Source: Torpedo marmorata
Lineage: Eukaryota
Length of the DNA: 64,000 bases
Reading direction: 5' to 3'
Assembly: GCA_977017645.1 (NCBI GenBank)
Contig: OZ360220.1
Coordinates: 87,978,001-88,042,000, forward strand
Shown: positions 479-55,244 of the stretch, one piece after another
Position numbering within the stretch: the first letter of the stretch is position 1
How the letters are laid out: every line of letters starts with the position of its first letter
The notes under the pieces: model-generated
Seen by the model: the letters and a program-made list of their open reading frames with translations, nothing else
What the model was told of the DNA's origin: nothing
Database searches by the model: none
Position numbers and translations under genes: made by a program

Positions 479-3400
479 AGTTGAAGACAAAGGTGGGAGT
501 GGTCATCGTCGGAGTGGGCTGAGTCAGAGTGGTAAGGCTTTGGCTCAACAGGCTTCGGAAAGAACAGGTAAGAGTCGAGGAATAGTCGGAGTTGAAGTCA
601 GAAAGGGCCACCCTATTCGAGGAACAAAAAGGATTCAGCAGGTAGGCACAGGTAAGGACAGATTTTTCAGATATCATATATTTTGTTCATCTAGTCATAG
701 ACAGTGGGAACGGCAGCCAAGGCAGGGGAATGCTCCTCTTGCAAAATATGGGTCGTCAGGGAAGCCAGTAGTATCCCTGACGACTTCATCTGCAATGAGT
801 GCATCCAGCTGCAGCTCCTGACAAGACGAGTTAAGGAATTGGAGCTGGAGTTGGATGAACTCTGGATCATTTGGGAGGCAGAGGGGGTGATAGACAGGAG
901 TTACAGGGACACTATCACACCTAGGAGGCAGGAGGAGGGTAGATGGGTGACAGTCAGGAGAGGGAAAGGGAACAGGCAGGCAGTGCAGGGCACCCCTGTG
1001 GACATTCCCCTCAATAACAAGTATACCATTTTGAATACTGTTGAGGTGGGGGGGGGGACCTACCAGGGACAAGCCATGAAGATCAGATCTCTGGCACGGA
1101 GTCTGCTCCTGTGGCTAAGAATGGAAGGGAGGAGAAGAGGAGAGCTGTAGTGATAGGGGATTCCATAGTTAGGGGGACAGATAAGAGATTCTGTGGAAGA
1201 GATCAAGTATCCTGGAGGGTATGTTTACTCCCCGGTGCCAGGGTCCGAGATACCTCAGATCGAGTTCACGGCATTCTCAGGAGGGAGGGTGAGCAGCCAG
1301 ATGTCGTGGTCATGTAGGGACCAATGACGTGGGTAGGAAGGGTGAGGAGGTCCTGCAAGGAGAGTTCAGGGAGTTAGGAGCTAGGTTGAAGGACAGGACC
1401 TCCAGGGTAGTGATCTTAGGATTGCTACCCATGCTACGTGCTGGTGAGGTTCGAAATAGGAGGATAATGCAGCTTAACACGTGGCTAAAGACATGGTGTA
1501 GGAGGGAGGGCTTCAAGTTTCTGGATCATTGGGCTCTCGTCCAGGGAAGGTGGGACCTGTTCCGACGGGACGGTTTGCATCTGAACTGGAAGGGGACAAA
1601 TATCCTTGCGGGAAGGTTTGCTAGTGCTGCTCCGGTGCGTTTCAACTAGTTTTTCAGGGGGAGGGGAACCACAGTGCCAGAGCAGATAGAGGAGTGGAGG
1701 AGGGAAAATATGATGTTAAAATTGCATGCACCATTAGAAGTCAACGGGTTGAATGTGGTGGAAATGTTCTCAGGTGCATCTATTTCAATACAAGGAGTAT
1801 TGTAAGAAAGGTAGACGAGAGCGTGGATTGGCACGTGGAATTATGACATTGTGGCCATTAGTGAAACTTAGTTGCAGGAGGGGCAGGACTGGCAGCTCAA
1901 TGTCTGTGCTTCCGTTGCTTTAGACATGATAGAATAGGGGGGATGAAAGGGGGAGGAGTGGCATTGCTCTTTAGGGAAAATATCCCAGCTGTGCTCAGGC
2001 AGGACAGACCAGAGGGCTCATCTACTGAGGCTATTTGGGTGGAGCTGAGGAACGGGAAAGGTATGACGACACTCATGGTGTTATATTATAGACCGCCCAA
2101 TAGTCAGCGAGAATTAGAGGAGCAAATCTGTAGATAGATAGCAGTCAGCTGCAGGAAACATAAGGTTGTGATAGGAGGAGATTTTAACTTTCTACATATT
2201 GACTGGGACTCCCATACTATAAAAGGGCTGGATGGCTTGGAGTTTGTCAAATGTGTTCAGGAAACTTTCTAACTCAATATATAGAGGTACCAACTAGAGA
2301 GAGTTCAATACTGGATCTCCTATTAGGGAACGAGACAGGACAGGTGACAGAAGTATGTGGAGGGGAACATTTTGGGTCCAGCGATCATAATGCCATTAGT
2401 TTCAAGTTAATTATGGAGAAGGATAGGTCTGGGCCTCGGGTTGAGATTCTAAATTGGAGAAAGGCCAATTTTGAGGAAATGAGAAAGGATCTAGAATGCG
2501 TGGACTGGGATAAATTGTTTTCGGGCAAGGATGTGCAAGGTAAGTGGAGAACCTTCAAAGGTGAAATTTTTGAGAGTACAGAGTTTGTATGTTCCTGTCA
2601 GGATCAAAGTCAAGGTTAGAAGGCATAGGGAACCTTGGTTTTCGAGGGATATTGGGGATCTGGTTCGGAAGAAGAGAGAGGTGTGCAACATGGAGCAAAT
2701 GAGGTACTTGAGGAGTATGAAAAATTCAAGAAAAACCTCAAGAAAGAAATCAGGAAGGCGAAAAAAGACATGAGATTACTTTGCAGACAATGTGAAGGAA
2801 AATCCTAAGGGTTTCTACAGGTATATTAAGAGCAAAAGGATAGTAAGAGACAAAATTGATCCCCTTGAAGATCAGAGTGGTCGACTTTGTATGGTGCCAA
2901 AAGAGATGGGGGAGATCTTAAATTTTTTTTTTCATCAGTATTCACTCAGCAAAAGGGCACAGAGTCGTGGGAAGTAAGGGAAACAAGCAGTGAGGTCATG
3001 GAAACTATACAGATTAAAGAAAAAGTTGAAGGTAAAGGTTCCATTATTGTCATGTAATACTACATTTAGAATGTAACATCCATGAAATTCTTTAATTTTT
3101 TGTCTACCGTAAGGCAGACAGAGAGTCGCTATTTTGTCCAGCATCCCTCACAGAAACCTACAGCACCTGGTGTTCCTAGGCAGTCTCCCCTCCAAGTACT
3201 GATTAGTCCTGTGCCTGCTTAGCCTCCGAGATCAGAAAATCTCAGTCGTATTCAGGCTATTGGTGCTGTAGGCCTGACAAGATATTCCCTCGGACCTTAA
3301 GGGAGGCTAGTGTAGAAATTGCAGGGGCTCTGGCAGAAATATTTAAAATGTCCCTAGCCACAGGTGTGGTGCCAGAGGATTGGAGGTTAGTTCATGTTGA

Positions 3401-4835
3401 ACTGTTGTTTAAAAAAGGCTCCAAAAGTAACCACGAAAATTATAGGCCAGTGAGCCTGACGTCAGTAGTAGGTAAATTATTGGAAGGTGTTCTCAGAGAT
3501 CGGATATACAAGTATTTGGATAGCCATGGACAGATTAGGCATAGTCAACATGGCTTTGTGAGTGATAAGTCGAGTTTAACCAATCTTATAGAGTTTTTCG
3601 AGGAGGTTACCAGGAAAGTTGATGAAGGAAAGGCTGTGGATGTTGTCTACATGGACTTTACTAAGGCTTTTAACAAGGTCCCGCATGGGAGGTTAGTCAG
3701 GAAGGTTCAGACGCTCGGTATTCATGGTGAAGTAGTGAACTGGATTCGACAATGGCTGGACGGGAGAAGCCAGCGAGTAGTTGTGGATGATTGCTTCTCA
3801 GTCTGGAGGCCTGTGACGAGTGGTGTGCCTCAGGGATCAGTGCTGGGACCTTTGTTGTTTGTCATCTATATCAATGATCTGGATGATAATGTGGTAAATT
3901 GGATCAGCAAGCTTGCAGATGATACTAAGATTGGAGGTGTTGTGGACAGCGAAGAATGTTTTCACAGCTTGCAGAGGGATCTGGACCAGCTGGAAAAATG
4001 GGCTGAAAAATGGCAGATGGGATTTAATGCAGACAAGTGTGAGGTGTTGCATTTTGGAAGGACAAACCAAGAAAGGACATACACGGTAAATGGTAGGGCA
4101 CTGAGGAGTGCGGTAGAACAGAGGGACCTGGGAATACAGATACATAATTCCCTGAAAGTGGCATCACAGGTGGATAGGGTTTAAAGAGAGCTTTTGGCAT
4201 ATTGGCCTTCAGAAATCAAAGTATTGAGTATAGGAGTTGGGATGTTATGTTAAAGTTGTATAAGACATTGGTGAGGCCACATTTGGAGTATTGTGTGCAG
4301 TTTTGGTCACCTAACTACAGGAAAGATATCAATAAGATAGAAAGAGTGCAGAGAAGATTTACTAGGATGTTGCCCGGACTTCAGGAACTGAGTTACTGGG
4401 AAAGGTTAAACAGGTTAGGACTTTATTCCCTGGAGCGTAGAAGAATGAGGGGAGATTTGATAGAGGTATTTAAAATTATGAGGGGGGTAGAGAGAGTAAA
4501 TGTAGATAGGCTTTTTCCACTGAGGGTAGGTGTGATACAAACCAGAGGTCAAGGGTTAAGAGTGAAGGGGAAAATTTTAGGGGGAACATGAGGGGGACCT
4601 TCATCACACAGAGAGTGGTCGGGGTGTGGAACAAGCTTCCAGCTGAAGTGGTAAATGCGGGCTCAATTTTAACATTTAAGAGGAATTTGGACAGGTACAT
4701 GGATGGGAGAGGCATGGAGGGCTATGGACTGGGTGCAGGTCAGTGGGACTAGGCAAAAAAAAATGGTTAACTCAGATTAAAGGGCCGAAGAGGCCTGATT
4801 CTGTGCTGTAATTCTCTCTGGTTCTGTGGTTCTAT
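479..4835 (+). mobile_element. Near full-length CR1 (HER1-like) LINE, degenerate
   Basis: ORF1 pieces have Cys motifs and a leucine zipper (CSSC...FICNEC..L..L) and an SGNH esterase motif (VIGDS, DGLH). ORF2 pieces include APE (YYRPPN, SDH) and RT ([22 protein letters not shown] at 3348-4184). The 3' tail has (tctatggt)-type repeats at about 4815-4835. Several frameshifts and stops are present. Confidence 0.93.
3025..3273 (-). mobile_element. 5S rRNA-derived SINE (SINE3-type), copy 1, inserted in CR1
   Basis: The reverse complement starts gcctacagc..., contains 5S box A/C-like gatctcggaggctaagcagg and gtacttggaggggagac, and ends its 5S part with ggtgctgtaggt. A roughly 130-bp body and tail follows, shared with 37391-37642. 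Confidence 0.85.
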
Positions 4836-5345
4836 GAGGAGCTAATGCAAGTTGAAGAATTTGAAGTTTTATGTAGAGCAAGGGAAGAGATTGCTGTGAC
4901 CCTGATGAATAAATGTAAATCTTTCCTGGCCATAGGTGAGGGGCCAGATGACTTGGTAGATAACAAATGTGGTGCCTTTATTCGTGAAGGTTAGATGTGA
5001 TAAACCAAGTAATTACAGGCCAGTTAGTATTACATAAGAGGGAACTTATTGGAATAAATTCTGAAACACAGGATTAATATACATTTGGAAAGACAGAGAT
5101 TGATCACAGACTTGTGGTGGGAGATTTCATCTAACTAATTGAGTGTTTTTGAAAAGGTAAATATTCATTGCTGTGCAGTAGATGTGATTTTCGTGGACTT
5201 CTGTTCGGCCTTTGAGAAGGTCCCACATGGATGGCTGATCCAAGGCTAGACAAAATTGGCAAATTATATCCAAAATTGGATTTATACAAGGAGATATACT
5301 GTAGTATGTTGGTGGAGGAGTGCTTTTGTGATTGGAAATTTGTAC
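4836..5345 (+). mobile_element. Old CR1 RT fragment (continues about 6610-7180)
   Basis: Degenerate matches to the CR1 RT motifs NYRPVS and VDF..AFEKVPHG. Confidence 0.65.
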
Positions 5346-5394
5346 GAATAGAAGGGATTGAAGCTGGGATTCTTACTGTTTATTGTATGTGCAA

Positions 5395-6170
5395 TGCACA
5401 AAAGTGCTGGAGAAACTCAGCAGGTCACGTAGCATCCAGAGAAAGTACAAGGCAGTCGACGTTTCAGGCCTGAGCCTTTCTTCAGGAGTGCCAAAAATCA
5501 GGTAATGCCTGAATAAAATGGTATGGTGAGGAGAAGGGGGTTTCCCCTCTACTGCCATTAACTCAGCCTTTACCAGCATCTCCTCTATTTCCTCCACACC
5601 CACCATGGCCCATACCACATCTCTGCAATTTCTGGCATCTACAATGGGATCCCACTACCAGACATAGTGTCCCCTCCCAAGCCCTCTCCACTTTCTGGAG
5701 GGAACGTTACCTCTAGGACTCCCTCACCAACTCATCCCTTCCTTCCAATCACCCCCATGTACTGCCAAGTTGAGGCCACCTGGATATTGGAGGAATACCA
5801 CCTTATATTCTGTCTTGGGAGTCTCCAACCAAATGGCATCAATAACAACCTCCAATTTCCATTAAACCCTTCCACAGTCTGTCTCTTTCCCTTACCCTAT
5901 TGTTTCCCTTCCTCCAGCTCCCTACCCCTTTCCTTCCTTCTCCTATCACAGTGCTGTCTTTTTAGCCCTCTGCCTTCTCCTCTTTCACTTCTCAGCTTCT
6001 AACCTCCTACCTGTTACCTCTTATCTGTTAACCCGTGCTCCTCCCCCTTCCCCCACCACCCCATCTTTTTATTGATGCCTCTGCCTCTGCCTGATTTTTG
6101 ACATCTTTGAAGTAGGGCACAGGCTCAAAACGTCGACCGTCTTTTCCTTCCTGTGGTTGCTGTGTGACCT
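5395..6170 (+). mobile_element. Internally deleted Penelope-like element with inverted 5' pseudo-LTR
   Basis: An inverted pLTR at about 5395-5530 is followed by plus-strand remnants of the GIY-YIG region (LEEYHLIFCLGSLQPNGIN) and a 3' pLTR at about 5880-6170. Confidence 0.75.
5451..5492 (-). ncRNA. Minimal type I hammerhead ribozyme motif in a Penelope pLTR
   Basis: Minus strand reads ggcactc-CTGAAGA-a-aggc(tcag)gcct-GAAA-c-GTC-gactgcc. The CUGANGA/GAAA/GUC core is intact, stem II has 4 bp, and stem I pairs at 6 of 7 positions. Confidence 0.7.
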
Positions 6171-6174
6171 TTAC

Positions 6175-6605
6175 AACATCTACTCACTTGTCAGGAAGGT
6201 GCAACAGCGACTGCATTTCCTGAGAAGACTGAACCAGGCAAGGCTACCAGCACCACCCTGTCAACCTTCTACAGGAGCTCTATCGAGAGCATCCTGGCCG
6301 GATGTTTTACAGTGTGGTACGGTTGCTGCAGAGAAATGGATCGGAGGTCAATCCACAGGACCATAATCTTGGCAGAGGGGATCATTGGAGTCTCCTCCCC
6401 ACCCCCCACCCCCCCCTCCCCACCATCGACGTGGTCTACCGGGATCGTTGTCTGAAGAGGGTGTGCAAAATCATTAAGGATCCCTTCCACCCTGCACACA
6501 GCATCTTTCAGCTGCTCCCATCGGGAAAGAGATACAGGAGTATCAGAGCCAGCACCACTCGGCTGAGGAAGAGCTTCTTCCCACGGGAAGTGAGAATGCT
6601 GAACC
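6175..6605 (+). mobile_element. Rex1/Babar-type LINE 3' fragment
   Basis: Peptide remnants QQRLHFLRRL, FYRSSIESIL and IIKDPFHPAHSIFQLLPSGKRYRSI are typical of the Rex1 ORF C-terminus. Confidence 0.85.
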
Positions 6606-6826
6606 ACCAAATGATTTTGGGATGTCAAGTAAGTGTAGAACAGAAACCATGAATGATAAGGTCCTAGGGAATATTGAGGATCAAAGGGACATTGGTCTGC
6701 AAGTCTAAAGATCGGTGAGGGTGGCAGCACAGGTAGCAAGGTTGATGATCAAGGCATGTGAGATGCTTGCCTTCATTGGCTGGGGCACAGAGCATAAGAG
6801 CAAGGAGAACTTAGTATAACCTTACA

Positions 6827-7035
6827 CAGGTATACCCCGCTTTACGAATACTCGCTTTATGCAAATTCGCTTTTACGAAGAAACCTGTGTTCGCTATCTG
6901 AAAGAAATTTGAATGGGTTTTTGCTTTTACGAAAATAGCCTTCAATAGTAGTGAATGGGTCTTCACTTCACGGCATTTTGGCTTACGGAAGGTTTCATAG
7001 GATTGCTCTACTTTCGTAAAGCGGGGTATACCACT
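6827..7035. mobile_element. Tc1/mariner-pogo (Tigger-like) MITE
   Basis: Perfect 20-bp inverted repeat ggtataccccgctttacgaa (6829-6848 / 7013-7032). The extreme termini are degenerate. Confidence 0.7.
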
Positions 7036-7184
7036 TTACAATGTAAAGCATTGATGGAATATCATGTTCAGTTTTGGTCACCCTGCTAAAGGCACAAGAA
7101 AGGATGCAGAGGAGAGAATGGAATGTTTCAGTTTTGAGGAGAGACAGGGTTGGTTTTCCTCAGAGAAGAGGAGCTGAGTGAGCC

Positions 7185-7560
7185 TATCAATGTGATTTAC
7201 TGGGATCACTGTTTAAAGAGGGCTTGCAAAATCAAGGAGGACCCCTACCACCCCGCATACAGCATCTTCCAGCTACTCCCGTCGGGATAAAGATACAGAT
7301 GTATCAGAGCAGGAACCACCAGGCTGAGGAACAGCTTCTTCCCACTGGCAGTGAGACTGCTGAATGACTGCTAAAACAATTTTCTGTGACTCTACTATTT
7401 ATTAATAATATTTATTTTAATATATGTACACATGTACTGTATATGTGTGTCGTTTGTGTCTGTACGTGTGTTTTGCACTGTTCTGCACCGTGGACTGGAA
7501 AACGCTGTTTTATTGGGTTGCACTGGTACAATTGGATGACAAATAAACTTGAACTTGGAA
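7185..7560 (+). mobile_element. Rex1/Babar LINE 3' end
   Basis: Homologous to 6420-6600 and ends gacaaataaacttgaactt. Confidence 0.8.
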
Positions 7561-9434
7561 CTATTGCTTTCCATGGATGCTGCGTTGTCCTGCTAAGTCC
7601 CTCCAGTACTTTTGTGTATTCTCCTCATTCTCTAACATCTGCGGACTCCTTGTTCACCACCAGTGAAAACATATAGGTGTTTCTCACTTTCATCCTTTGT
7701 AGATACAAGAATGGGATTAGTTATAATCCATTATCTGTCAATCAATGTGAAACATATTTTGTGAAGTGTAGATGTTTCAAAGTTTTATTGTTAATCTGAA
7801 GAACATACAAGCTTGTACTGATTTTGCATTAACCATCAGATTTGGAGCCTATACAAAAACAAGAGTATTATCACACAGTTTCTAAGGTTGCAGTGGTTAT
7901 TTCATCCCTATAACATAATATATGCATTTTAACTTACTGACTGATCTTAAGTCACATTTCTTAGATGTAATTGCCTTTCATACAATAATAAAACAAGCTG
8001 ATCAACTTCTTGAAGTTGAAGTCTTACTTCAGATTTTACTATATTGTCCTTAAAGGGAAAGTCAACCTGCTGCGAAGATACAGTATATCTTAACTGAGTT
8101 ACATTTAAACACAAGCATTAGTATCTCCCAATTAATAAATTACAGAACACCAATACAGCTTTATTTATCTTGCACAAATTATTTGTTCATGTTGGCAACA
8201 ACTTTAGCAATTATTATTATTTTAGCTTTTCTTCCAAGTATTCTATATCTAGAGTTGGGGAATTCATAATTATCCTGAAACAATTCACAAGAGATTTTTG
8301 TCTATATATGCATATATTCTGTTTTGACTCTGCATAGTGCTCGACAAGAGGTTTTTCAACATTTTCAAGAAAAAGATGAAGGGTCTTCAACCTGACACAT
8401 TAATTCTGTTTCTCTCTTCGAGCTTCCTAGCCTGCTGAGCGCTTCCAGCTTTTACTGTTGTATTTCAGATTCCTAGCATCTGCAGTTTTTTTATTCTTAC
8501 TTTAAGAGGTTTGATTGCAGTTGCATAAATTTCCTGAAATGATTCAATGCGAATGCAGTCTGTCAGTGATTTTCATCAAAATTCTGCCAATAATCCAGAG
8601 CAACTTCAGTGAGAGTTCAATGAAAGACTGATGTCATCAAAATCATTGAGGCTTCCACAGATTTTCCAACAAAATTGCAGTTTAAAATGAAGGAATCTTG
8701 AAAATTCATCCCTGTGTAAGCAATTCTAGGTTTTCTAATGTAGCTGTGCTTGCTCAATAATTTAATGATCTTACACTTTGTCTCAGCAAAAGCTGCAAAT
8801 TTATGATTTGTTTTGTGTGAATAAACCAGTTCCACCAGCCAGTATGTCAAAAATCAGAGGGCAGAGATGTAAGGTGCAATTGAGGAGAACAGTGTGAGGC
8901 CAAGTTTAAGTTTATTGTCACATGTACTGAGGTACAGTGAAAAGGTTTGTTTTGTGTGCTATTCATAATTACAGCAGAATAAAGCACAGCACAGAGAGTA
9001 GTGTTACAGTGCGATATCAGTAAATGTACTAGCAAGTGAATCAATTACGATGAAATATTTCTCAATAGAACCACAGAGAGACGAACATCCCTGCAGTAAG
9101 TTGTTGTGATGTGGAATGAATTACCTGTACCTTTCAAAAAGGAGTTGACATATACTTTAAGGCAAAACAAATATTCTGGGCTGCGGGGAATGATTGGGTG
9201 ACTAGTGCTAATTAGACTGCTCATTCCAAGTGCAGCACAGACATAATGGGCCAATGGCCTGTGCTGTAAGAGTCTGAAGTTAAAACACAATTCTGGAGAA
9301 ACTCAGCAAGTCAAACAATGTACTTCATATGGCAAAGATAAAGATACATAACCAACATTTCGGGCTTGAGCCTGTAAGAGTCTGAACTTGGTATCCTTTC
9401 TTGCTCTGTGGCTGTGTATTTGATGTGGAACATA

Positions 9435-18095: not shown

Positions 18096-19210
18096 ACCAT
18101 AGAACCATAGAACGCTACAGCACAGAAAAACAGGCTATTCGGTCCTTCTAGTCTGTGCCGACCATTATTCTAGTCCCATTGACCTGCTGCCATTCCATAA
18201 CCCTCTAGACCTCTCCCATCCATGTATCTATCCAATTTATTCTTAAAACTCAAGATCGAGCCTGCATTCACCACACCAGATGGCAGCTCATTCCACACTC
18301 TCACCACTCTCTGAGTGAAGAACTTTCCCCTAACGTTCCCCCTGAACCTTTCACGTTTCAGCTTACAACTATGACCTCTCGTATTTATCTCCCCCAATCT
18401 AACTGGAAAAAGCCTACTCGCATCCACTGTCTATACCTCTCATAGTCTTGTAAACCTCTATCAAATCTCCACTCTTTTCTTCTTCGCTCCAAGGAATAAA
18501 GTCATAACCTCTTTCATCTTTCCCTGTAACTCATCTCCTGAAGACCCGGCAACATCCTAGTAAATCTTCTCTGCACTCTTTCAATCTTATTGATATCCTT
18601 CCTGTAGTTTGGCGACCAGAACTGCACACAATATTCCAAATTTGGCCTCACCAATGTCTTATACAACTTCAACATAACATCCCAACTCCTCTTTCCATTA
18701 TTTTTATTGAGTTTTATATATATATATATGCTCATACATAGGTAATAGCAAGAATATATATCCAACGAAGTAAACGCATGTTAACAAATAGCTGTAAACA
18801 ACCTATGAAAGAGACAAAAAAAAACAAAATGCATAAAAAACAAAAACTACTCTAATAATCTAACCCCTCCATTGTGAGGTTATGATTAAATTCCATTAAT
18901 GCATGAAAGAAAGGAGAACCAAACCATAAAATGGGATCCAATAATCTTATAAATTCTGAAAATAATTAAGGAAAGGACCCCATAAGTTAAGGTTCATTTC
19001 ATTAGTTGAGCATCTGATTTTTTCCAGAGTCAAGCATGCCATCACATCAGATAACCATCAGATAGGAGGGACCGTATCCTTCCATCTCATAAATATAGCT
19101 CTTCTGGCAATAAGGAGAGCAAAGGCAACTACATGGGATTGTAAATAACACAAATGCTGGAGAAACTCAGCAGGTCAAACAGTGTATTTTATGTAGCAAA
19201 GGTAGAAATA

Positions 19211-19251
19211 CATAACCGGCGTTTCAGGCTTGAGCCCTTCATCAAAGTATG
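19211..19251 (-). ncRNA. Hammerhead motif copy with mutated cleavage triplet (GCC)
   Basis: Minus strand reads catactttgatgaagggctcaagcctgaaacGCCggttatg. Confidence 0.5.
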
Positions 19252-20288
19252 AGAAAGTGCCTGCAGGCGTCTGAACAAAAGAGTGAGGGGGGAAGTGGCA
19301 AAGGCAGGAGATGATAGGTGGAGAAAGGAGGGAGGGGACAGCAGCAAAGAGGGGGAGGAGGGATGGCTATCTGGTGGAAAAAACAGGTATGACAGGTGAG
19401 GGGGGAGGGGAAGGAAACGACAAGCAGGTTTAGTGGAAAGCAGAAAAGTCAATGTTAATGTCACCTGGCTGGAGAGTGCCCAGACGGAAAATGAGATGTT
19501 GTTCCTCCAATTTGCGGGTAGTCTGGGTGGGATAGTACATAAGGCCATGGACAGACATGTGAGTGTGGGAGTGTGACCCGGAATTGAAATGGTTGGCTAC
19601 TGGGAGGTCGCTGTTGTTGCGGACGGAGAGGAGGTGCTCAGCAAAGCGGTCTCCCAATCTGCGACCGGTCTCTCCGATGTAGAGAAAGCCACAAAGGGAG
19701 CACCGGATGCAGTAAATAAGTTCTCTGGATGTACAAGTGAAGTGTAGTTTCACTTGGAAGGCCTGTTTGGGGCCCTGGACCGTGGTGAGGGGGGAGGTGT
19801 GGGCGCAGGTGTTGCACCTCCTGCGGACACAGGGGAAGGTGCTGGGGGTGTGATTGGTGGGGAGGGATGAGTGCACGAGGGAATCGCGGAGGAAGCGGTC
19901 CCTACGGAAGGCCGAGAGGGGAGGAGAAGGAAAAATGTGTCTGGTGGTGGGATCCTGTAGTAAGTGCCGGAAATTCCGGCGGATAACGTGTTGGATGCGA
20001 AGGCTGGTGGGGTGGTAGGTGAGGATGAGGGGGATTCTATATTTGTTGCGTCTGGGGGCAGAGGGGGCCAAGGCAGATGAACGGGAAATGGAGGAGATGC
20101 GGGTGAGGGCTGAGTTGATGGTGGTGGAGGGGACGCCACGTTTGTGGAAAAAGGCAGACGTTTCAAAAGATCTGGACTGGAAGACCTCATCTTGGGAACA
20201 GATGCGGCGGAGACGGAGAAATTATGGCAAAGTGGCCTTTGCCACTTCCCCACTCACTCTTTTGTTCGGACGCCTGCCGGCATTTTCT

Positions 20289-20329
20289 CATACTTTGATG
20301 AAGGGCTCAAGCCCGAAACGTCGGTTATG
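20289..20329 (+). ncRNA. Minimal hammerhead ribozyme motif (C3U variant) in Penelope pLTR
   Basis: catact-TTGATGA-a-gggc(tcaa)gccc-GAAA-c-GTC-ggttatg. Stem II is a perfect 4 bp and stem I is 6 bp with one bulge. Confidence 0.65.
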
Positions 20330-20697
20330 TATTTCTACCTTTGCTACATAAAAGACACTGTTTGTCCTGCTGAGTTTCTCCAGCATTTGTGTTTTTTACT
20401 TCAACCACGGTGTCTACAGATTTTCGTGTTTTACTACATGGGATTGTAGCCTAGATAAATTTAAATCAGCTGACTTACTTATTCCAAAAAGGGCAAGAAA
20501 AGGATTAGGAGACAAATTAATATTAAGAGCTAAAGACAAGGTACGGAAGATACTTTACCAATAATTGGAAAGCACGGAACATGACCAAAACATATGAAAT
20601 AATATACCTTCTTCAGTCTTACATCTATCACATTTTGATGAGAAATTAGAATAAAATTTAGCCAATTGAAGTTTGGAAAAGTAAGCTCGATGTACTA

Positions 20698-37070: not shown

Positions 37071-37390
37071 TTTCTACAGTTGCTGTTTACTCTGCTGAGT
37101 GTTTCCAGCATTTTTTAATTTAATTTAATTTTTTTTGGCTAAGGAAGAGTTTGTGGCAATTGCAAAAAAGGAGAAATCTCTTCATTCATAGCTGTTAGAA
37201 TATGGAAGTGGTTATAGTAAAAATTGCCATTAGATGTGTTCAGAAGGAAGCCAGTAAGTGCAGGAGAGAAATAGGTCAGGAAAATACCCTGGAAGGTATG
37301 GTGGAGATGTATGTGTTGAATCAATGCTAAAAAGGGTATTTGGGTCAAATGGCGCATTTCTGTCATGCCATTTCATTTAACATTCATCTC

Positions 37391-37642
37391 TTTACAGCAC
37401 CAATAGCCTGAATACGACTGGGATTGGCTGATCTTGGAAGCTAAGCAGGCACAGGACTGGTCAGTACTTGGAGGGGAGACCGCCTAGGAACACCAGGTGC
37501 TGTAGGTTTCTGTGAGGGGCGCTGGACAAAGTAGCGACTCTCTGTCTGCCTTACTGTAGACAAAAATGAAAGAATTTCATGTATGTTACATTCTAAATGT
37601 ATTATTACGTGACAATAATGGAACCTTTACCTTTTACCTTTT
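37391..37642 (+). mobile_element. 5S rRNA-derived SINE, copy 2
   Basis: ctgatcttggaagctaagcagg...gtacttggaggggagaccgcctaggaacaccaggtgctgtaggttt matches vertebrate 5S rRNA. The body and (tttacc)n tail are shared with 3025-3273. Confidence 0.85.
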
Positions 37643-41159: not shown

Positions 41160-41640
41160 CACTAGGATTGCCATATCTTTCCACACAACATTTTATACCC
41201 GCAAATTAGGAACAACACCTAATATTCCGTCTGGACACTCCAACTAGATGGCATTAAGATCAACTTCTCCAGTTTCTGTTAAAACCCTCCCCCAATTCTC
41301 TATCATTCCCTATCCCTCTGTCTTCTTTCGTCCAGCCCCCACCACCCCCCTTCCCTCTCCATTCAGAGAGATACTCCCTCCTCTTATCACTTAGCTTTCT
41401 CTTCTACCCTCCCACCTATATCCACCTATGACCTCTTAACTGTTACCTCTGCTCCTCTCCCGTGTCTTCCTCCTTCCTCTCCTCTCCTCTCCCACTCCTG
41501 CCACCTTTTTATTCAGATGCCTGCCTATAGTTTGCTCATACATTAATGAAGGGCTCAGGCCTGAAACGTTGATTATCCTTTACTTCCTATTGATGCTGCG
41601 TGGCCTGCTGAGTTTCTCCAACACTTTTGTTTATTGTATT
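41160..41640 (+). mobile_element. Penelope 3' fragment with degenerate pLTR/hammerhead
   Basis: Encodes RKLGTTPNIPSGH-like (frameshifted EQHLIFRLG) remnants and contains aatgaagggctcaggcctgaaacgtt at about 41545-41570. Confidence 0.75.
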
Positions 41641-45474: not shown

Positions 45475-46139
45475 GTTTAGACGGCATCTAAACCCAGCGA
45501 TGGATAGCGAAGCAGTATCAGCGCAGTCGGCCTCAAGCTCCTGACCTTCTGGACAGTTCGACCCGGCGTGTGGTTCGACCAGGCTGAGGCTCAGTTCCAA
45601 ATTCGGGACATCACAGCTGAGACCACATGGTACTACCATGTGGTCAGCGCCCTGGATCCAGAGACTGCAGACAGGTTGGCCAACTTCATCCAGAGGCCAC
45701 CATCGGAAGGCACTTACACTGCCTTCAAAGAGCTATTGACTGAGAAGTTCGGGCTCTCATGGCGAGAGAGAGGGGCACAGCTGCTCCACCTGGATGGGCT
45801 AGGGAACGAGATGCTAGCCCTCCTGGGAGACCATGAGCCCCGTGTCATGTTCGAGCAGGCGTTCTTGGAGCAGCTGCCCGAGGACATCCAACTGCTCCTG
45901 GCTGACGCAGATTTCAGAGACCCCCGGAAAGTCGCAGCACGGGCAGATATTCTGTGGAAGCAGAAACAGAAGTGCTCGGCTACCGTGGGGCTCGTCACAA
46001 AGTCTCGCAACCAGACCAAGGCAGGCCCTGGAAAGGAGCGGCAGGCAAGAGGCAGGAACGCATCCAAGGAGAGATGGTGCTTCTACCACCAAAGATGGGG
46101 CTCCGAGGTCCGCCGATGCCGGTCGCCGTGCGAGTTCCA

Positions 46140-46185
46140 GGGAAACAACAAGGCCAGCCGTCGCTGATGGCCACGGTGGCTGGCC
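46140..46185 (+). promoter_or_regulatory. Putative -1 ribosomal frameshift signal (gag-pol)
   Basis: G GGA AAC in the gag frame, a 5-nt spacer, and a 12-bp stem (46152-63 / 46174-85). The -1 frame is the pol ORF. Confidence 0.72.
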
Positions 46186-49100
46186 ATCGAGAGAGCCTCC
46201 TGTACGTATGGGATTGCCTTTCTGGCAGACGATTCTTGGTGAATACAGGAGCGGGGGTCAGCGTGATGCCCCCGACAGGTTTGGACACTAGATGCAGGCA
46301 AGCGGGCCCCACGTTGAGGGCTGCCAACAACAGCAGCATACGGACCTATGGCAAGCGTAGGTCCGAGCTGCATTTCGGAGGCAGTCACTTCTCGTGGGAG
46401 TTCACGCTGGCCGCAGTGCAACAGCCACTCCTGGGAGCGGACTTCCTGCGGGCCCACAGCCTCCTAGTGGACCTCAAGGGCAAGAGACTCGTGCACGCGG
46501 AAACATTCCAAACCTTCGCACTGAGAGGCGCCGGGCTCCTGGCACTGCACCTGGAGTCTGTCCACAGCTTGGACGATGAGTTCTCCAAAGTGCTGGCCAA
46601 GTTCCCGGCATTCCTTTCCCCTCAGTTCATGGTGGAGGTGCCCCGACACAGCGTCAGGCATCACATCCTTACCAAGGGTCCACCTCTCCACGCAAGGGTG
46701 AGACGACTTCCCCCGGAGAAGCTTCAACTGGCCAAGGAGGAGTTCTGCAAGCTCGAGGAGTTAGGCATCGTTCGGCGGTCGGACAGTCGATGGGCTTCTA
46801 CCCTGCACATGGTGCCCAAAGCATCTGGGGACTGGAGACCGTGCGGCGACTACCGCCGGCTTAACGAGGCCACCACTCCAGATCGTTACCCCGTGCCGCA
46901 TATCCAGGACTTTGCGGCAAACCTGCACGGAGCGACGATCTTCTCCAAAGTGGACGGTGCGAAAGTACCACCAAATCGTGGTGCACCTTAACGTCATTCC
47001 CAAGACGGCCATTATCACTCCATTCGGGCTGTTCGAGTTCCTGAGGATGCCATTTGGGCTCAAGAATGCGGCACAGACCTTCCAGCGACTGAAGGACGTG
47101 GTGGGCCGAGACCTGTATGGCACCTTAGTCTACTTAGACGATATCCTGGTGGCGAGCAGAACCCGGTAGGAACATCTACAACACCTCTGAAGCCTCTACA
47201 GTCGCCTACGTGAGTTCGGCCTTACTATCAACCTGCCTAAATGCCAGTTCAGTCTGAGCACGATTGACTTCCTGGGCCACAGGATTAGCAAATGCGGGGC
47301 CATGCCACTACCCAAGCAAGGTGGAGGCTATCCGCAACTTCCCAAGGCCCAGTATGACCAAAGGACTGCAGGAGTTCATGCGGATGGTCAACTTTTATCG
47401 CAGATTCATCCCCGCAGCTTCTCGAACCATGCGCCCACTCTTCACCCTGATGACTGGCAAGGCGAAGGACTTGACCTGGGACGATGACTCCGCACGAGTG
47501 TTCGTGGAAGCGAAGGAAGCCCTGGCTAATGCCGCACTCCTGGCCCACCCCAGGTCAGACGCACCCACAGCCCTCACGGTCGATGCCTCAGGAACAGCGA
47601 ATGGGGAGTTCTGGAGCAGCAGATAGAAGGAAGTTGGCGTCCACTAGCTTTCTTCAGCAAACATCTGCGGCCCCCGAGCTAAAGTACAGTGCTTTCGACA
47701 GAGACCTACTGGCTCTGTACTTAGCCATCCGCCACTTCCAAGAGGGAAGGGCATTCACGGCTTTCACGGACCACAAGCCACTGACGTTCGCCCTGGCCAA
47801 GATCTCCGATCCCTGGTCAGCCTGCCAGCAGAGACACTTGTCTTACGTCTTGGAGTACACCACCGACGTAAGGCACATCTCGGGAAAAGACAACGTGGTC
47901 GCGGACACCTTGTCGAGACAGAGCATCCACTCTCTGGCTAACGGACTGGATTTCATGGCACTGGCGGAGGCACAGCAGCAGGACGACGAGATGCCTCAGT
48001 ACAGGACCGCTGTCACGGGGCTGCAGCTTCAGGACATCCCAGTCGGCACAGGTAACACTACCCTCCTGTGCGACATGGCCACCGGGCAGGTTCGACCTAT
48101 CGTCCCAACGGCATAGAGGCGACGAGTTTTCGACTCCATCCACGGACTGGCACATCCATCAATCAGGACCACGGTCCGATTGGTGGCCAGTAAGTACGCA
48201 TGGCATGGATTGCGGAAACAAGTCAGCGGGTGGGCCAAGACATGCACACAGTGCCAAACAGCCAAGGTACAGCGGTACGTCAAGGACCCCCGCAGCCTTT
48301 CGAGCCAACGGAGCGAATATTTGACCACATTCACGTGGACATAGTGGGACCCTTACCAGTCTCACAGGGTTTCCGCCACCTGTTCACGGTGGTCGACCAT
48401 TTCACCCGGTGGCCAGAAACAATCCCCCTGGCTGACACATCCACCAGGTCCTGCGCCAATGCACTCATCTCGTCCCGGTTAGCAAGGTTCGGGCTACCAC
48501 GCCACATAACCTCCGACAGAGGCGCACAATTTACCTCCAGCCTGTGAACCGACGTTGCCAACCTGTGGGGCGCTCAGCTACACCACACGACAGCATACCA
48601 CCTGCAGTCTAATGGGCTGGTTGAGTGCTTCCACAGGCACCTCAAGGCCGCCCTTATGACCAGACTCAAGGGCCCCAACTGGGTTGACGAACTGCCATGG
48701 GCACTGCTGGGGAATCTTACAGCCCCGAAGGAAGACCTCCACATATCCTCCGGCGAACTCGTCTACGGAGCTCCACTCATGGTCCCTGGGGATTTCGTCC
48801 CACCGGCCAGAGGTCAACAGGAGGATACAACCACTTTCCTGGACAGGTTGCGGGAAAAGGTCGGTAACCTGGCTCCGATCCCACCCTCCAGACACAGGCA
48901 AGCAAGTTCAACATCCCGAAAGAACTCCAAGACTGTGAGTATGTGTTCGTACGCAGAGGGCCAAACCATCCACTGCTACAGAAGCCCTACGAAGGCCCCT
49001 TCTGAGTCATCTGGATCAACGGGGCCACCTTCGAACTGGACATCAGTGGCAAACCAGAAGTCTTCACCGCAGACAGGCTCAAGCCGGCACAGACGGACTC

Positions 49101-49759
49101 GACACAACCCGTGGACACGCCAGCACCTTGGTGCAGAGGCAGACCACCAAAGTCATTGGGGACTGCATCCACGGACACTATGAACTGTAGCGCCGGTTCT
49201 GGGGGGGTGTCCTGTGGCGGCCCACCACTGCGGAGATCAAGCCGGCACATCGCACGGCGCGCGCGGTAGTAAACAGCGGCATAACACACTGTAACGCGAT
49301 CCTTAGCATAGCGAACCGGCACGGTTGAAAGCTGGAGCAGTACAAGACCAGCAGTCCTAAAATGGCGCTGGCCAAGCTGCCCAGCTAACAGATCAATACC
49401 AGGCTGGGGAAGAAGGGTATTCATATGCAAGAACGTTCCCACCTACTATTATTATTCATGTAGCTGATGTCAACCACTCAACCAAATGGCGGGAACTCCA
49501 ACTGTATAAAAGAAGCATTTCCAGCCTCAATAAACCAGAGAGCTTAACCTTCCACACTGCGTGTGTGTGTTTCTTTGTAGCAGTCGGCTACAATCCCTTA
49601 ATTAATACGGTGAGGTAATAAATTGTTTTCAAATCAAATATGTTCAGCCTTCTTTGACAAATAGTTTCCATGAGTGAGATTAGAGCAGTTATTATAAATG
49701 TGTGTTTGTTACGTGGAGCCAGGATAACATGATTGTGATGACCTATTTAAGACTGTTAA

Positions 49760-49950: not shown

Positions 49951-52900
49951 AATTTTCCAAAATAAATTTAACTAGATGAAGAGTGTATTAATTGTTGGGT
50001 ACCATAAAATCAGAAAAAATTGTAATCATTGTACACTTATGATAATTTCTTGCTCAATCTTATTGTTATGGTCAACTATCAGTGGGGTTCATTTATTTGC
50101 GCTGCATCATGTATTTTTCAGCTTAAATAGAATGATAACTGATTAAAATAAAAGTAAAACTCACTGGCTGTCCAAAGATATCCACTTGTTTTCCAACCCA
50201 AAATATCTTGACACTTGAGTTTTATCTGGGACACTGTAAAGTAATAGTTTTGCACTGTTTGTGAGGCACAGTAAAGTTTACAGAGCAGCTGAAGGATGGG
50301 TCCTTAAAGGGTAGCTGTGCCCTTCACCAAAATACCACTTCATTATTTATCTCAATGAACATGAATGCTCCTAGCTATGCTAATTTCCCCCCGCTACTAC
50401 GAGCTTCTCCATCTTCGCTCTTCCCTCTGCCACTCTTGAATCCCTCTTCAATCATCCACTCTTAGCATTCACTCAGACTAAAGAATTATTTCAGGCAAAG
50501 GAATCACATGATTTCCAAACCACATCAATGAAAATAATTTGTGCCTCCAGCAAGCATCAGTGAACAGGTGCTGCAACAAATTTTGAAATCAAAAATCACA
50601 TCTCCCCCTCACCTGTGCCCCCAAGTCTCAACACCATTGGTATCATCAACTGTCTAAAATATGCAATAGATATTTTTCCTTCCCTCAGTTTCCAAGTACA
50701 AACTTGAGGAAAGGAAGGCGTGTGACAAGGTCCTTGGCCCAGGTGTCCATTCTCTTCACGTTGGCCAGGTATTTTTTTCAAACAAGTGATTATATTGGGT
50801 GAAGGAAGTGAGGCTGATTGAGACTGGATACTGATTATCATGATGAGGCAGGAGAGTGACCTTCCTGGCTCATGTTTTATCTCCATTACCAGATGGGAGC
50901 ATGGCCTCAGGACCTTAGCCTGGTATTTTTCAGAGACTCCTAAAGCATAGCAAGAAGATGAAATGCATTATCAGTGACCAGCCTGGTGCTTGGGGCGTTC
51001 TCAACACGACTCACAGGGAACAGCAGGAATGCTCTCAGAACCAGGTCTTCTAAAATCTACAAAGCTCCACTGTATTTTGGGAAATTATATACTTTATTTT
51101 TTTGTAGGTTTATTTGGTTATACACAATATTCTATTTACTTGAATAACACAAGTGGTATTAAAATAAAGAAGGGCTGCTAATATTGCTAAAATAGCTAAA
51201 TTTTACCCTTTTCAGTTTGGAAAGAGATTGCATTTGGTCCACTCATGGAGCTGTTCACTTCTAGATGTTATAACAATCTGAATATTTATGTTCAATCAAC
51301 CATGATGAGGTTGAAATTGCCCTCAGTGTATTAAATGGTTTACAAGGATTCGTTTCAGGTTAGTTCTGGCTGGCACCAGAAGCAAGTCAATCAAATCATT
51401 TAATGTACACAGAGGCACATTGCCACAGATAGTACCTGTGGTGCAGCAACATATTCATTGCCCTGTAAACATCAATCTTCCATCAGTAGTAAAATAAATC
51501 TGCTCTATTTATAGCTGTTTCAACTGACATGACATTTATTGACTTTTTACATTTCCATTTCCCAAATATTTGACTGATGTTAAACAGCAGGAAAGTGTTT
51601 ATTCCCAATAAGTAAAATTGCTTAAACTAACTTTGACTCGGACTTGAATAAGCATTTACTTCACTTAACAATAAAAAATCTTCCATGGCCAAGACTGCAG
51701 AGCATATCATAAATTAAGGGTTAATGTTGCATGTACTGAAGTTGTTGAAATGCCAGCATATTTTGCACTAGTTTTGTGCCGAGGTTAAGAGAAATAACTA
51801 ATCTTTGTTCTCTTAAGATAATGATCATAATTACAAATTGTTCCTTGCTGTTAGCAATTATTTAGCTTTAAAAATCTAGATGCAAGAAATAGGCCAACAA
51901 ATCCTGTGAAGAACAAATCTTAGCATTTAAAGAAATTAGTGCTTTGAAGTATTTGAGGAAATCATTAGCTTCAGCCTTAAGAACAACTGTTTTTCATTAA
52001 AATAACTGTATTGCAGAAGGGTGTTGTGAATAGAACTATACAATTCAAAAGACAAAGCTTAGTCAATGCCTGCCAAATAAGGTCACTTTAAATAAAGCTT
52101 CACAGTATAAGAATATTGTAACATCTTAAAATGCTCTTGGGCGGGCATAATTGGAAAGCTGCATCTCATAATTCAGCAAAACAATTCAAGCTCCAACACA
52201 TTTATTTCTCATACTTTCTTTGGTGGCTCTCAGTGCCATCCTATCAATCCCCTCCCCCATTTATTTTTCTGTCATCTACTCTCTGTCAGATGTTCATCAG
52301 CTTCCTCTAATTCATCCTGCCCACCCACAATCTGAACAATTTAAGTAGCCAACAACTTCACAGGATATCTTTGGACATGCGAGGAAACTGGAGCACCGAT
52401 GGAAAACTCACAGTCACAGGGAGAAGGTGCAAATTCTGTGCAAAAAACTCCGTCAAACAATATTTGTGTAAGCAGGGGTGCAGATCAACAACTGGAGTTG
52501 TTAGAGATTGAGATGTGGGTCTCCACCGATCTGAATGATTGTAGGGCTGCGGGCCCCAGCTGAATGGTGGTTTGGCTGAAAGCTTGGGAGAGTAAAAATG
52601 AGGTTGGGAAACAGGTATCAGGTGTCTGGGTTAGGCAGGTCTGCGGAATGAAAGGTAAGCCTCAATCCAGGTCTGCACTCTGACAGTGAACAAAGAGGGA
52701 CTCAAGTGGGTCATGCAGCATCCAGGGATAGAAATGGTCAGTCAACGTTTCAGGTCGGGACCCTTTACCGAGATCCTCTTCACCAGTCTGCTGCATTTTG
52801 ACAGTCTAATTATCTCTTGACTGCCTAATGAAGGCTGCTCCCAGGGAAATTTGGTGTAATTTTCTTCACAAAGCTTCAAATGGGGAGGCATCACCTCGTG

Positions 52901-53291: not shown

Positions 53292-55244
53292 CCGTATATT
53301 TCGGCGTATAAGTCGAGTCTTGAAACCCTCAAAAATCTCTCAAAAAACGGGGGTCAACTTATACGCCGGATATACTTTTGAGACCTTAAAATTCAGCTCA
53401 AAAACCACTCCACGCCGATTCGGCATATGTCGACCCTTGAAAACCCGATTCGGCGTATAAGTCGACCCTTGAAAACACGATTCGGCATATAAGTCAACCC
53501 TTGAAAACACGATTCGGCGTATAAGTCGACCCTTGAAAAACCAAAAAAAAACCCGACTGCAACAAATTTTCATTGACATTTTTATTGAAAACAACAAGAC
53601 ATTTAGAACCCTTCAAAATCACTTTCGCTATCATCGTCTGAGGCAAAGATCTCGGCAAGCACATCTGGGGTCTCACTGTTTAAACAGTCATCGTACGGGT
53701 CCCAGTCTGTATCTGATGAGGCGGCTTCAGCTTCGTCGTCAGTGTCCCACAATAAATCATCTTCCGTACCATCAATTGCACAAGAGATACCGCACTTTTT
53801 AAACGATTTTATTACAGTCTCTACTTTCACTTTGTCCCATGCCTTGAGCACGAAGTCACACAGCACATCAAGCGATGCAGCACGCATTGCCCCGCCTTTT
53901 GTAAATGATTTTTCTGCACTCGACATCCATGTATTCCACTCTTCACGCACATGGTCTTTGAATGGCTTGTTCAAGCAGACATCGAGAGGTTGCAATATAG
54001 ACGTCAAACCACCCGGGATAACCGCCATGTAAGTATTATGTTGTGCTAATCTACTTTTAGTCTTCTCAGTTAAGTGGCTACGAAACATATCCCAGACCAG
54101 CAAACTCCGTTCCTTGCATAAACCACCTGGCAGCCTGTTCCACACATTGTTCATCCATAGTTTTACACCATTTTCATCCATCCATCCTTTTTCATGAAAA
54201 TGTACAAAAATACCCGCAGGGAATTTTATTTTAGGTTTAAATTTGCGTTTGAAGATTACCATGGGTCTTAACTTTGTCCCGTCGGCCATGCACGATAACA
54301 CCACAGTAAACCTGGTCCTTTCATGGTCGGTACTCCTGGTTTGCACAGTTTTCACACCTTTCCATTCCACTGTTCTATTGCCTATCATGTCAACATTCAT
54401 GGGGGTTTCGTCCATGTTTCCAATATTTGCCAATGCAAACTTGTGTTTCTGCCGGTTACGTAAAATAAACTGGTGAAAACTTATAACTTTATTATCAAGA
54501 TCTTTTGGTAGTTTCTGAGCAATTTTTGTTTTTTGTCGTAATACCAGATTTTTCCTGTTCATGAAACGGTTGCACCAGCCTACTGTAGCTTCAAAATCAT
54601 TACTGAGTTCTGGGTGCGACTTTGCCCACTTCAGTGCAAATGTTCTTATTTTATTTCGGGTGACTATGTAGCAATCTTGCCTCTGTTCACGTACCCATGC
54701 TGCGACGTGATTTTCCAACTCTGGCCAATGAGTGATTCCTCTTCTCATCGAACATTGCCTTTTTGGTATTTTTCTTAAAGTATCTTCTTTCTTCCTCCAA
54801 TCTCTTACCAACTTCTCATATATATCAAATTTTCTTGCAGCAGCACAGTTGTTGGTTTTCTTGGCCATTTCTATCACTTTTAATTTAAAACTCGCCTCAT
54901 ACTTTCGTCGTTTCAATTAAGCCTCCATGATAACAATCACCTCCAGCCAACGCCCAGCAGCTCAATCAGCGCGATCGTTGTGGGTCGACCTATACGCCGG
55001 TCAACGACAAGCAGCTCAATCTTCGCGATTTTTGGGGGTCGACCTATACGCCGGTCAACGCCCAGCAGCTCAATCATCGCAATTTTTTGGGGTCGACTTA
55101 TACGCCGGTCAACGCTCAGCATCTCAGGCATTGCGATTTTTGGGGGTCGACTTATATGCCGGATATACAATAAAACCATTAAAATGAGGCTGAAAAAGTG
55201 GGGTCGACTTATCCGCGAGTCGACTTATACGCCGAAATATACTG
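53292..55244 (-). mobile_element. pogo-superfamily DNA transposon (DD35D, Passer/POGK-like), full length, 1953 bp
   Basis: 25-bp TIRs ccgtatatttcggcgtataagtcga (1 mismatch), a TA TSD, subterminal tandem repeats, and a transposase ORF. Confidence 0.93.
53603..54928 (-). pseudogene. Passer-type transposase (Brinker-like DBD, CENP-B HTH, DDE_1) with stop at codon 4
   Basis: ATG GAG GCT TAA is followed by 437 open codons. The catalytic residues are in NMDET, VWDMF and QPLDV, with 35 residues between D2 and D3. Confidence 0.88.

Follow-up and report, generated by a model that had tools for sequence, protein, structure and literature searches.

A decayed Penelope-like insertion of Torpedo marmorata carries a minimal type I hammerhead motif in its inverted pseudo-LTR

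A stretch of 64,000 nucleotides of Torpedo marmorata DNA (assembly GCA_977017645.1, contig OZ360220.1, positions 87,978,001 to 88,042,000), hereafter the window, carries at 5451-5492 on its minus strand a short segment with the core of a hammerhead ribozyme. The segment raises two questions, whether it is a true hammerhead and whether the copy itself, or only the family from which it descends, is expected to cut RNA. It is a real member of the already published Penelope minimal hammerheads, and its recognition in the first-pass annotation was correct. We estimate at about 85% the probability that this published type of motif persists here, within an inverted pseudo-LTR left by an old and truncated insertion, as a likely passive relic that would not cut alone, with dimer-type cutting taking place from the transcripts of source elements. 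The motif and the insertion that hosts it, element A, consist of the following features.

5451..5492, minus strand: minimal type I hammerhead, with a C3 core, A7, a 4-bp stem II and a predicted cut at 5458^5457
5392..5540, minus strand: element A's 5' inverted pseudo-LTR, a member of the older subfamily 'F' that agrees with the subfamily majority at 117 of 131 columns
5541..5870, plus strand: C-terminal fragment of a Penelope-like ORF, decayed and internally deleted (thumb/linker and endonuclease end; frameshifts, stops)
6043..6170, plus strand: 3' pseudo-LTR of element A, its hammerhead at 6107-6134 broken (A9 and G12 changed) and its right end cut short

On the minus strand the motif begins with a stem I arm (5492-5486), followed by CUGAAGA (5485-5479), an extra A (5478), a 4-bp stem II with a 4-nt loop (5477-5466), GAAA-CG-UC (5465-5458) and the second stem I arm (5457-5451). 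The core, the 4-bp stem II and the ACGU palindrome were all read correctly in the first-pass annotation, as was the pairing of stem I at six of seven positions, interrupted by a C.C mismatch; this 6/7 pairing holds for the focal copy but is specific to its subfamily. Stem II is closed by A10.1-U11.1. A15.1 and U16.1 are separated by 2 nt and the four bases make up the palindrome ACGU; with this gap a lone motif cannot close stem III. The minimum-energy fold of the focal RNA consists of stem I (2 bp, the C.C mismatch, 4 bp) around an open core plus the 4-bp stem II, and its energy is unremarkable (z -0.94; 27 of 200 shuffles fold equally well). The proposed comparison with the Rfam hammerhead models gave no match up to E = 10, either for the whole window or for the narrow region, and the motif, with its 2-nt loop and this lack of an Rfam match, falls outside the canonical monomeric hammerheads of the Rfam families. 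The core pattern, allowing at most one mismatch, occurs four times in the window against 0.10 expected, and none of 100 shuffles reaches four.

The minimal hammerhead is defined as lacking loop III, with an extra base after position 9, a G10.1-C11.1 pair and palindromic 15.2-16.2 as recurrent features (Cervera and de la Pena 2014, PMC4209133). The focal motif carries the CUGANGA and GAAA boxes, U16.1 and H17; the unpaired base between 9 and 10.1 is the A at 5478, a base shared by 28 of the 30 subfamily copies, and CG at 15.2-16.2, extended to ACGU, provides the palindrome without loop III. Our search patterns fixed CG at these two positions, so that the palindrome survey covers the CG form. 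At 10.1-11.1 the focal copy has A-U, while in the subfamily 27 of 30 copies have G at 10.1, and position 11.1 is either C or T, the latter arising from it by CpG decay; as judged from these copies, the conserved G10.1-C11.1 pair is present in the source element and altered in the focal copy. Anatomy and element layout thus agree on a minimal type I hammerhead inside a Penelope pseudo-LTR, as had been suggested. The short stem III and the extra A, which had been called unusual, are both listed features of the published minimal hammerhead, in which GAAA-C-G-U-C/U is described as the commonest form (PMC4209133).

By its sequence, element A is a decayed, 5'-truncated Penelope-like retrotransposon insertion. 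Its repeat is about 150 nt long, its body begins at 5541 on the plus strand, and the inverted 5' copy is 70.5% identical over 129 nt to the partner at 6043-6170, in agreement with the inverted pseudo-LTR layout known for Penelope-like insertions (PMC8557442, PMC3846280). No target duplication of element A was found at the locus. A younger insertion in the same window, element B, spans 19141-20432 with the same layout, and the 3' repeat of a third element is also present.

20235..20432, plus strand: 5' inverted pseudo-LTR and tail of element B, young subfamily 'Y', with a hammerhead at 20289-20329 carrying U3.G8
19430..20221, minus strand: C-terminal ORF fragment of element B, stop-free, 263 aa, with a C-x4-C-xx-C linker and a GIY-YIG match (Pfam E 0.0023, below the curated cut-off)
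19141..19305, minus strand: 3' pseudo-LTR of element B, sharing 94.5% identity with the inverted partner, with a hammerhead at 19218-19245 in which U16.1 is changed to C
19128..19143, plus strand: target-site duplication of element B, left copy, 16 bp
20433..20448, plus strand: target-site duplication of element B, right copy, 16 bp
41468..41636, plus strand: 3' pseudo-LTR of a third element, with a hammerhead at 41543-41570 in which G5 is changed to A

The copy at 20289-20329, cited in the first-pass annotation as a second hammerhead with a different but paired stem I, is real and its stem I pairs, but a U.G wobble and a one-base bulge are needed and core position 3 is U, not C. Further pseudo-LTR stubs of several subfamilies, with the core partial or absent, lie at 400-476, 7560-7620, 9275-9373 and 52695-52765 of the window. 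A longer copy elsewhere in the genome (L191) encodes 751 aa with RT and GIY-YIG matches, both slightly below the Pfam cut-offs. The C-x4-C-xx-C linker is found in the 19430-20221 ORF and in L191 and is deleted in element A; it is typical of Neptune and Nematis elements (PMC8557442, PMC3846280), and a Neptune-type assignment made from sequence on this linker does not separate the two. Among named proteins the best relatives come from rays and sharks, with 66-77% identity, making the repeat probably an elasmobranch one, as had been stated.

Unrelated features were also observed in the window. Two 5S rRNA-like heads, at 3155-3273 (minus) and 37390-37508 (plus), score 44.9 and 44.8 bits in Rfam and are each followed by the same 150-nt tail; we take them to be likely members of a 5S-derived SINE family rather than 5S genes. 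A stop-free frame of 437 aa at 53603-54916 (minus) contains BrkDBD, HTH_Tnp_Tc5 and DDE_1 domains and is an apparently intact transposase of the pogo/Tigger type. Two related regions resembling the gag/pol of LTR retroelements, both with frameshifts, lie at 45508-49183 and 62167-63112 (plus).

The description of the repeat as very abundant is well founded: the exact core with a 13-nt spacer is found 143,926 times in 6.2 Gb, whereas the reversed control gives 183 matches, and with a 14-nt spacer 1,145 matches against 213. Forty blind 10-kb stretches contained 14 exact cores, against 9.3 expected. A relaxed core scan was dropped for its many false matches, and the exact-core and flank-anchored sets were used instead. 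For comparison within the family, six subfamilies were collected by anchors downstream of the core, at 30 loci each (the first 30 of 157,386, 653, 3,140, 10,317, 2,367 and 321 anchor matches); of the 30 loci from the one shared anchor, 22 were retained as the young subfamily. CpG decay was reversed by a fixed rule in the subfamily majority sequences. The six majorities agree at 13-17 of the 17 core and closing positions, and their flanks are 39-89% alike. Pairing with changes on both sides is seen at 2.1-1.1 in six of six majorities (U.G once, C-G four times, U-A once), at 2.2-1.2 in six of six (C-G and U-A three times each), at 2.3-1.3 in five of six (A-U three times, G-C twice, and C.C in the focal subfamily) and at 10.4-11.4 in six of six (C-G four times, U.G and U-A once each).

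The covariation check proposed in the first-pass annotation was run on 84 clusters built from 216 of the 225 distinct exact-core copies, the other nine being without the downstream box. Watson-Crick pairs at 2.1-1.1 numbered 60 versus 36.5 in shuffled alignments (rank 1 of 333 column pairs) and at 10.4-11.4 numbered 50 versus 36.1, while 2.2-1.2 gave 48 versus 39.3, yet ranked only 92; rank 2 was taken by a column pair that is not paired. Among these clusters, covariation of the distal pairs in stem I mostly fell short of significance. In a second test of 40 rows (the focal copy and 39 copies hand-picked from the 84 clusters; 10.4-11.4 left out for a gap), the covariation score was 0.320 versus 0.240, was reached by none of 500 shuffles and lay above all six slid controls; the count of pairs changed on both sides was not above the shuffles, 376 of 500 of which reached it. 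On these alignments the inner stem is supported, via few inherited events. The proposal that structure is kept across subfamilies accordingly holds for the core and for the inner stem I pairs, which compensate. Within subfamilies the core was less diverged than the flank in four cases and more diverged in two, with significance in a single case, and this inconsistent divergence was not taken as selection on the copies.

Inserted copies, as read from their sequences, decay by CpG loss inside the core. The motif is spanned by 22 of the 30 copies of the focal subfamily; CpG positions are changed in 39% of cells versus 7% for other core bases, and the exact core is kept by one of the 22 spanning copies. 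The corresponding number for the young subfamily is 14 of 19, and two young copies show clean internal deletions at the hammerhead (L215 and L229; the whole core in one and the 3' arm region in the other). The intact focal core is therefore a lucky survivor, as is expected when the best-looking copy is picked from a large family. A10.1 occurs in two of 30 sister copies, and U11.1 is a common CpG decay (15 of 30), so that the focal A10.1-U11.1 pair would most simply represent two neutral changes replacing the conserved G-C. The intact core had been taken as informative on this copy; given the decay of inserted copies and the private change at conserved 10.1, this is not supported, and the focal copy is probably inert. 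One observation runs against the view of a relic: the two repeats of element A are unequally decayed, with the subfamily majority at 117 of 131 versus 89 of 125 columns, a difference that neutral drift need not predict.

Two other explanations bear on the focal copy and its core. It is very improbable that the host has recruited the copy as an active ribozyme and that selection now maintains it. Its exact core where one of 22 sisters keeps one, its closer approach to the subfamily majority than that of the partner repeat, and the double change to A10.1-U11.1 might suggest selection; the A-U pair is nevertheless expected by chance in a few percent of copies from the sister frequencies at the two positions, the copy was chosen for its intact look from a very large family, its stem III cannot close alone while the nearest copies are broken or on the opposite strand, and a survey of the 30 long frames in the window brought up no recognisable host gene. 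Still less credible is a chance resemblance in the repeat tail, whose conservation would then reflect a role at the DNA level, for instance as promoter or endonuclease site. The modest fold z-score and the lack of recognition by Rfam are compatible with it, but the same core in the same place has been published in elements from cnidarians to reptiles (PMC4209133), compensatory pairs occur between subfamilies, and in a related vertebrate element cutting is reported to be abolished by catalytic mutants (PMC11167929). This explanation is already largely refuted.

For the family as a whole, we favor dimer-type cutting from source-element transcripts. Head-to-tail elements that could supply such transcripts are present: one locus (L231-L232; G000:C2:199270001-199290000) contains four head-to-tail motifs at spacings of 3,841, 3,803 and 3,837 nt, belonging to three near-full-length young-subfamily elements and a partial one, with a period of 3.8 kb and each broken by frameshifts or stops. 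Each cut site there follows the ORF stop by 221-222 nt, and three of them precede the next start codon by 151 nt. Shorter arrangements were also observed. Two of 68 young copies (L241 and L255, both minus) have the hammerhead duplicated head to tail at spacings of 54 and 49 nt, forming ready-made close dimers that apparently arose from template jumps at short matches, and four matches to the sequence just past the cut site lie 30 nt apart at G000:C11:71430838-71430952, a short tandem array derived from a pseudo-LTR.

If transcription reads through such an array, neighbouring motifs on the RNA would pair in twos via the ACGU palindrome (ACGU:ACGU as stem III) and exchange their stem I arms, giving a double hammerhead that is probably assisted by the protein of the element; a slow cut after position 17 would then release unit-length RNA. 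Selection on the source elements would preserve the core and inner stems, leaving the inserted copies free to decay, and most insertions would derive from RNA templates that had either stayed uncut or been re-joined at the motif. A nested, clash-free drawing of the dimer is possible, but this structure is not favored in nearest-neighbour energies (-24.5 versus -25.8 kcal/mol for two monomers), and a different, inactive duplex reaches -33.1 kcal/mol. Dimers of minimal hammerheads are reported to have low activity (PMC4209133), and the hammerhead of an Anolis element cut only with protein present and was dispensable for insertion in vitro (PMC11167929); the closeness of the dimer energy to that of two monomers is in agreement with both. 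Dimer cutting in this genome is what we infer from these models and reports.

Cutting of the templates might be expected to leave its mark at the ends of copies, and the ends were therefore mapped. Among 738 matches, 68 copies have the repeat running into the ORF start; 50 of these extend upstream through the cut site (in one the core is deleted, and in one the alignment is short of the anchor), 18 begin 4-102 nt downstream of it, and none of the 68 starts within -4 to +3 of it. In the young subfamily, 191 matches begin exactly at the cut site (23 of 30 checked were true ends), versus 103 at a control position 5 nt downstream (29 of 30 checked). After correction for the junction filter, the counts are 330 versus 279, a ratio of 1.19 for this subfamily and this one control position, indicating no pile-up of 5' ends at the cut site. 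Most templates, on this result, were either uncut or re-joined, and a circular form of template may be compatible with footprint-free ends. The lack of a pile-up is no positive sign of cutting in vivo and counts against the explanation that we favor. Boundary mapping in the old subfamilies was dropped, since local alignment biases it upstream. At 10 of the 30 cut-site-end loci (L452, L455, L458, L460-L462, L466, L476, L477 and L479), the insertion is short and has a sense pseudo-LTR piece fused straight to an inverted one, forming small palindromes. In another set of loci (L192, L193, L201-L230), the first ORF codons hold a stretch, CUGAAGAA, that resembles the first of the hammerhead boxes but has no GAAA box to go with it; this is probably a coincidence.

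The identity of core position 3 leads to the remaining alternative. C3 is found in 5,332 of the 143,926 exact cores, and about 96% have U3 opposite G8; the focal copy, with C3, thus belongs to the minority form. Of the sampled subfamilies, the two with the most copies have U3 predominantly (20 of 22 and 21 of 30). Contigs from sequencing runs of four organisms carry the repeat with no listed variant at the U3 position, and these contigs are uninformative on RNA ends and hence on expression or cutting. A natural U3-A8 covariation has been described (PMC3088659), U3.G8 is present in one published row (Saccoglossus 1; PMC4209133, Fig. S3), and our literature search found nothing usable on the kinetics of U3.G8 hammerheads. 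The hammerhead fold could be kept for a job other than cutting, such as RNA dimerisation or binding of the RT-endonuclease; in the dominant subfamilies U3.G8, together with a competing hairpin in which the core is hidden, would have weakened catalysis. We consider this unlikely, though it has several points in its favor: the prevalence of U3 with G8 in the genome and in the most abundant subfamilies, the best fold of the young subfamily, in which the core pairs with itself (-12.5 versus -8.4 kcal/mol for the open form), the lack of excess 5' ends at the cut site, and the report that insertion of the Anolis element in vitro is unaffected by hammerhead mutants (PMC11167929). Against it, the remaining catalytic positions are fixed in the majorities of the U3 subfamilies, which would not be required without catalysis, the Saccoglossus 1 example shows that U3.G8 occurs among published hammerheads, and re-joined circular templates would be likewise footprint-free.

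Dimer-type cutting from source transcripts remains our preferred reading, and the C3 versus U3.G8 contrast at the family level is the part that deserves attention; the focal copy at 5451-5492 is itself unlikely to matter. An unlikely extension is that the most successful Penelope subfamilies spread with C3-G8 replaced by a U.G wobble and with a self-folding core, the rest of the core and the stems being fixed, in which case the motif would be a deliberately damped or protein-switched ribozyme, or one kept mainly for RNA dimerisation or protein binding. If so, six dated subfamilies with and without the U3 change would form a natural series on why elements keep hammerheads. On the role of the Penelope hammerhead in the transposition cycle (PMC8557442, PMC11167929), this genome offers material: subfamilies with C3 and with U3 that differ in age, tandem arrays that are intact, and copies numerous enough for template ends to be mapped.

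Among known systems, the non-LTR retrozymes (bioRxiv 10.64898/2026.07.22.740005) also have type I hammerheads from Penelope pseudo-LTRs, and one chondrichthyan genome is included there. They are described as non-coding tandem repeats, whereas the focal copy is the end of a fragment of a coding element; a retrozyme identity was rejected for this single motif beside an ORF fragment. The Poseidon element PAc of Anolis carolinensis (Frangieh et al. 2024, PMC11167929) is likewise a vertebrate Penelope-like element with a stem I/II hammerhead, and its insertion uses unprocessed RNA, as the copy ends suggest here. PAc differs in belonging to another clade, in having C3-G8 and in an ORF that starts inside stem II, whereas in the present family 151 nt lie between the cut site and the start codon that follows it. 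With the Neptune-type EN+ elements (PMC8557442, PMC3846280) the present family shares the RT, the C-x4-C-xx-C linker and the C-terminal GIY-YIG, together with 5' truncation, the inverted pseudo-LTR, a tail at one end and partial tandems.

The closest likeness is to the minimal hammerheads of 2014 (PMC4209133), which are of type I with CUGANGA and GAAA boxes, an extra base between 9 and 10.1, palindromic 15.2/16.2 and a short stem I, and which lie in both terminal repeats with neighbouring copies on opposite strands. Three differences stand out: the dominant form here is U3.G8, which occupies one published row; the focal copy has A10.1-U11.1 instead of the published G-C; and the copy number is about 144,000, versus the 4,000-9,000 quoted for coelacanth and Xenopus. 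Cartilaginous fish are absent from Table S1 and Fig. S3 of that paper, and no published Penelope hammerhead of a shark or ray was found among the best-ranked literature matches. The Acropora digitifera Neptune example in the same source is nearly identical to the focal motif, sharing its CG palindrome and having a GGGC stem II of 4 bp with a 4-nt loop, and the present finding extends this motif to a cartilaginous-fish genome, at very high copy number.
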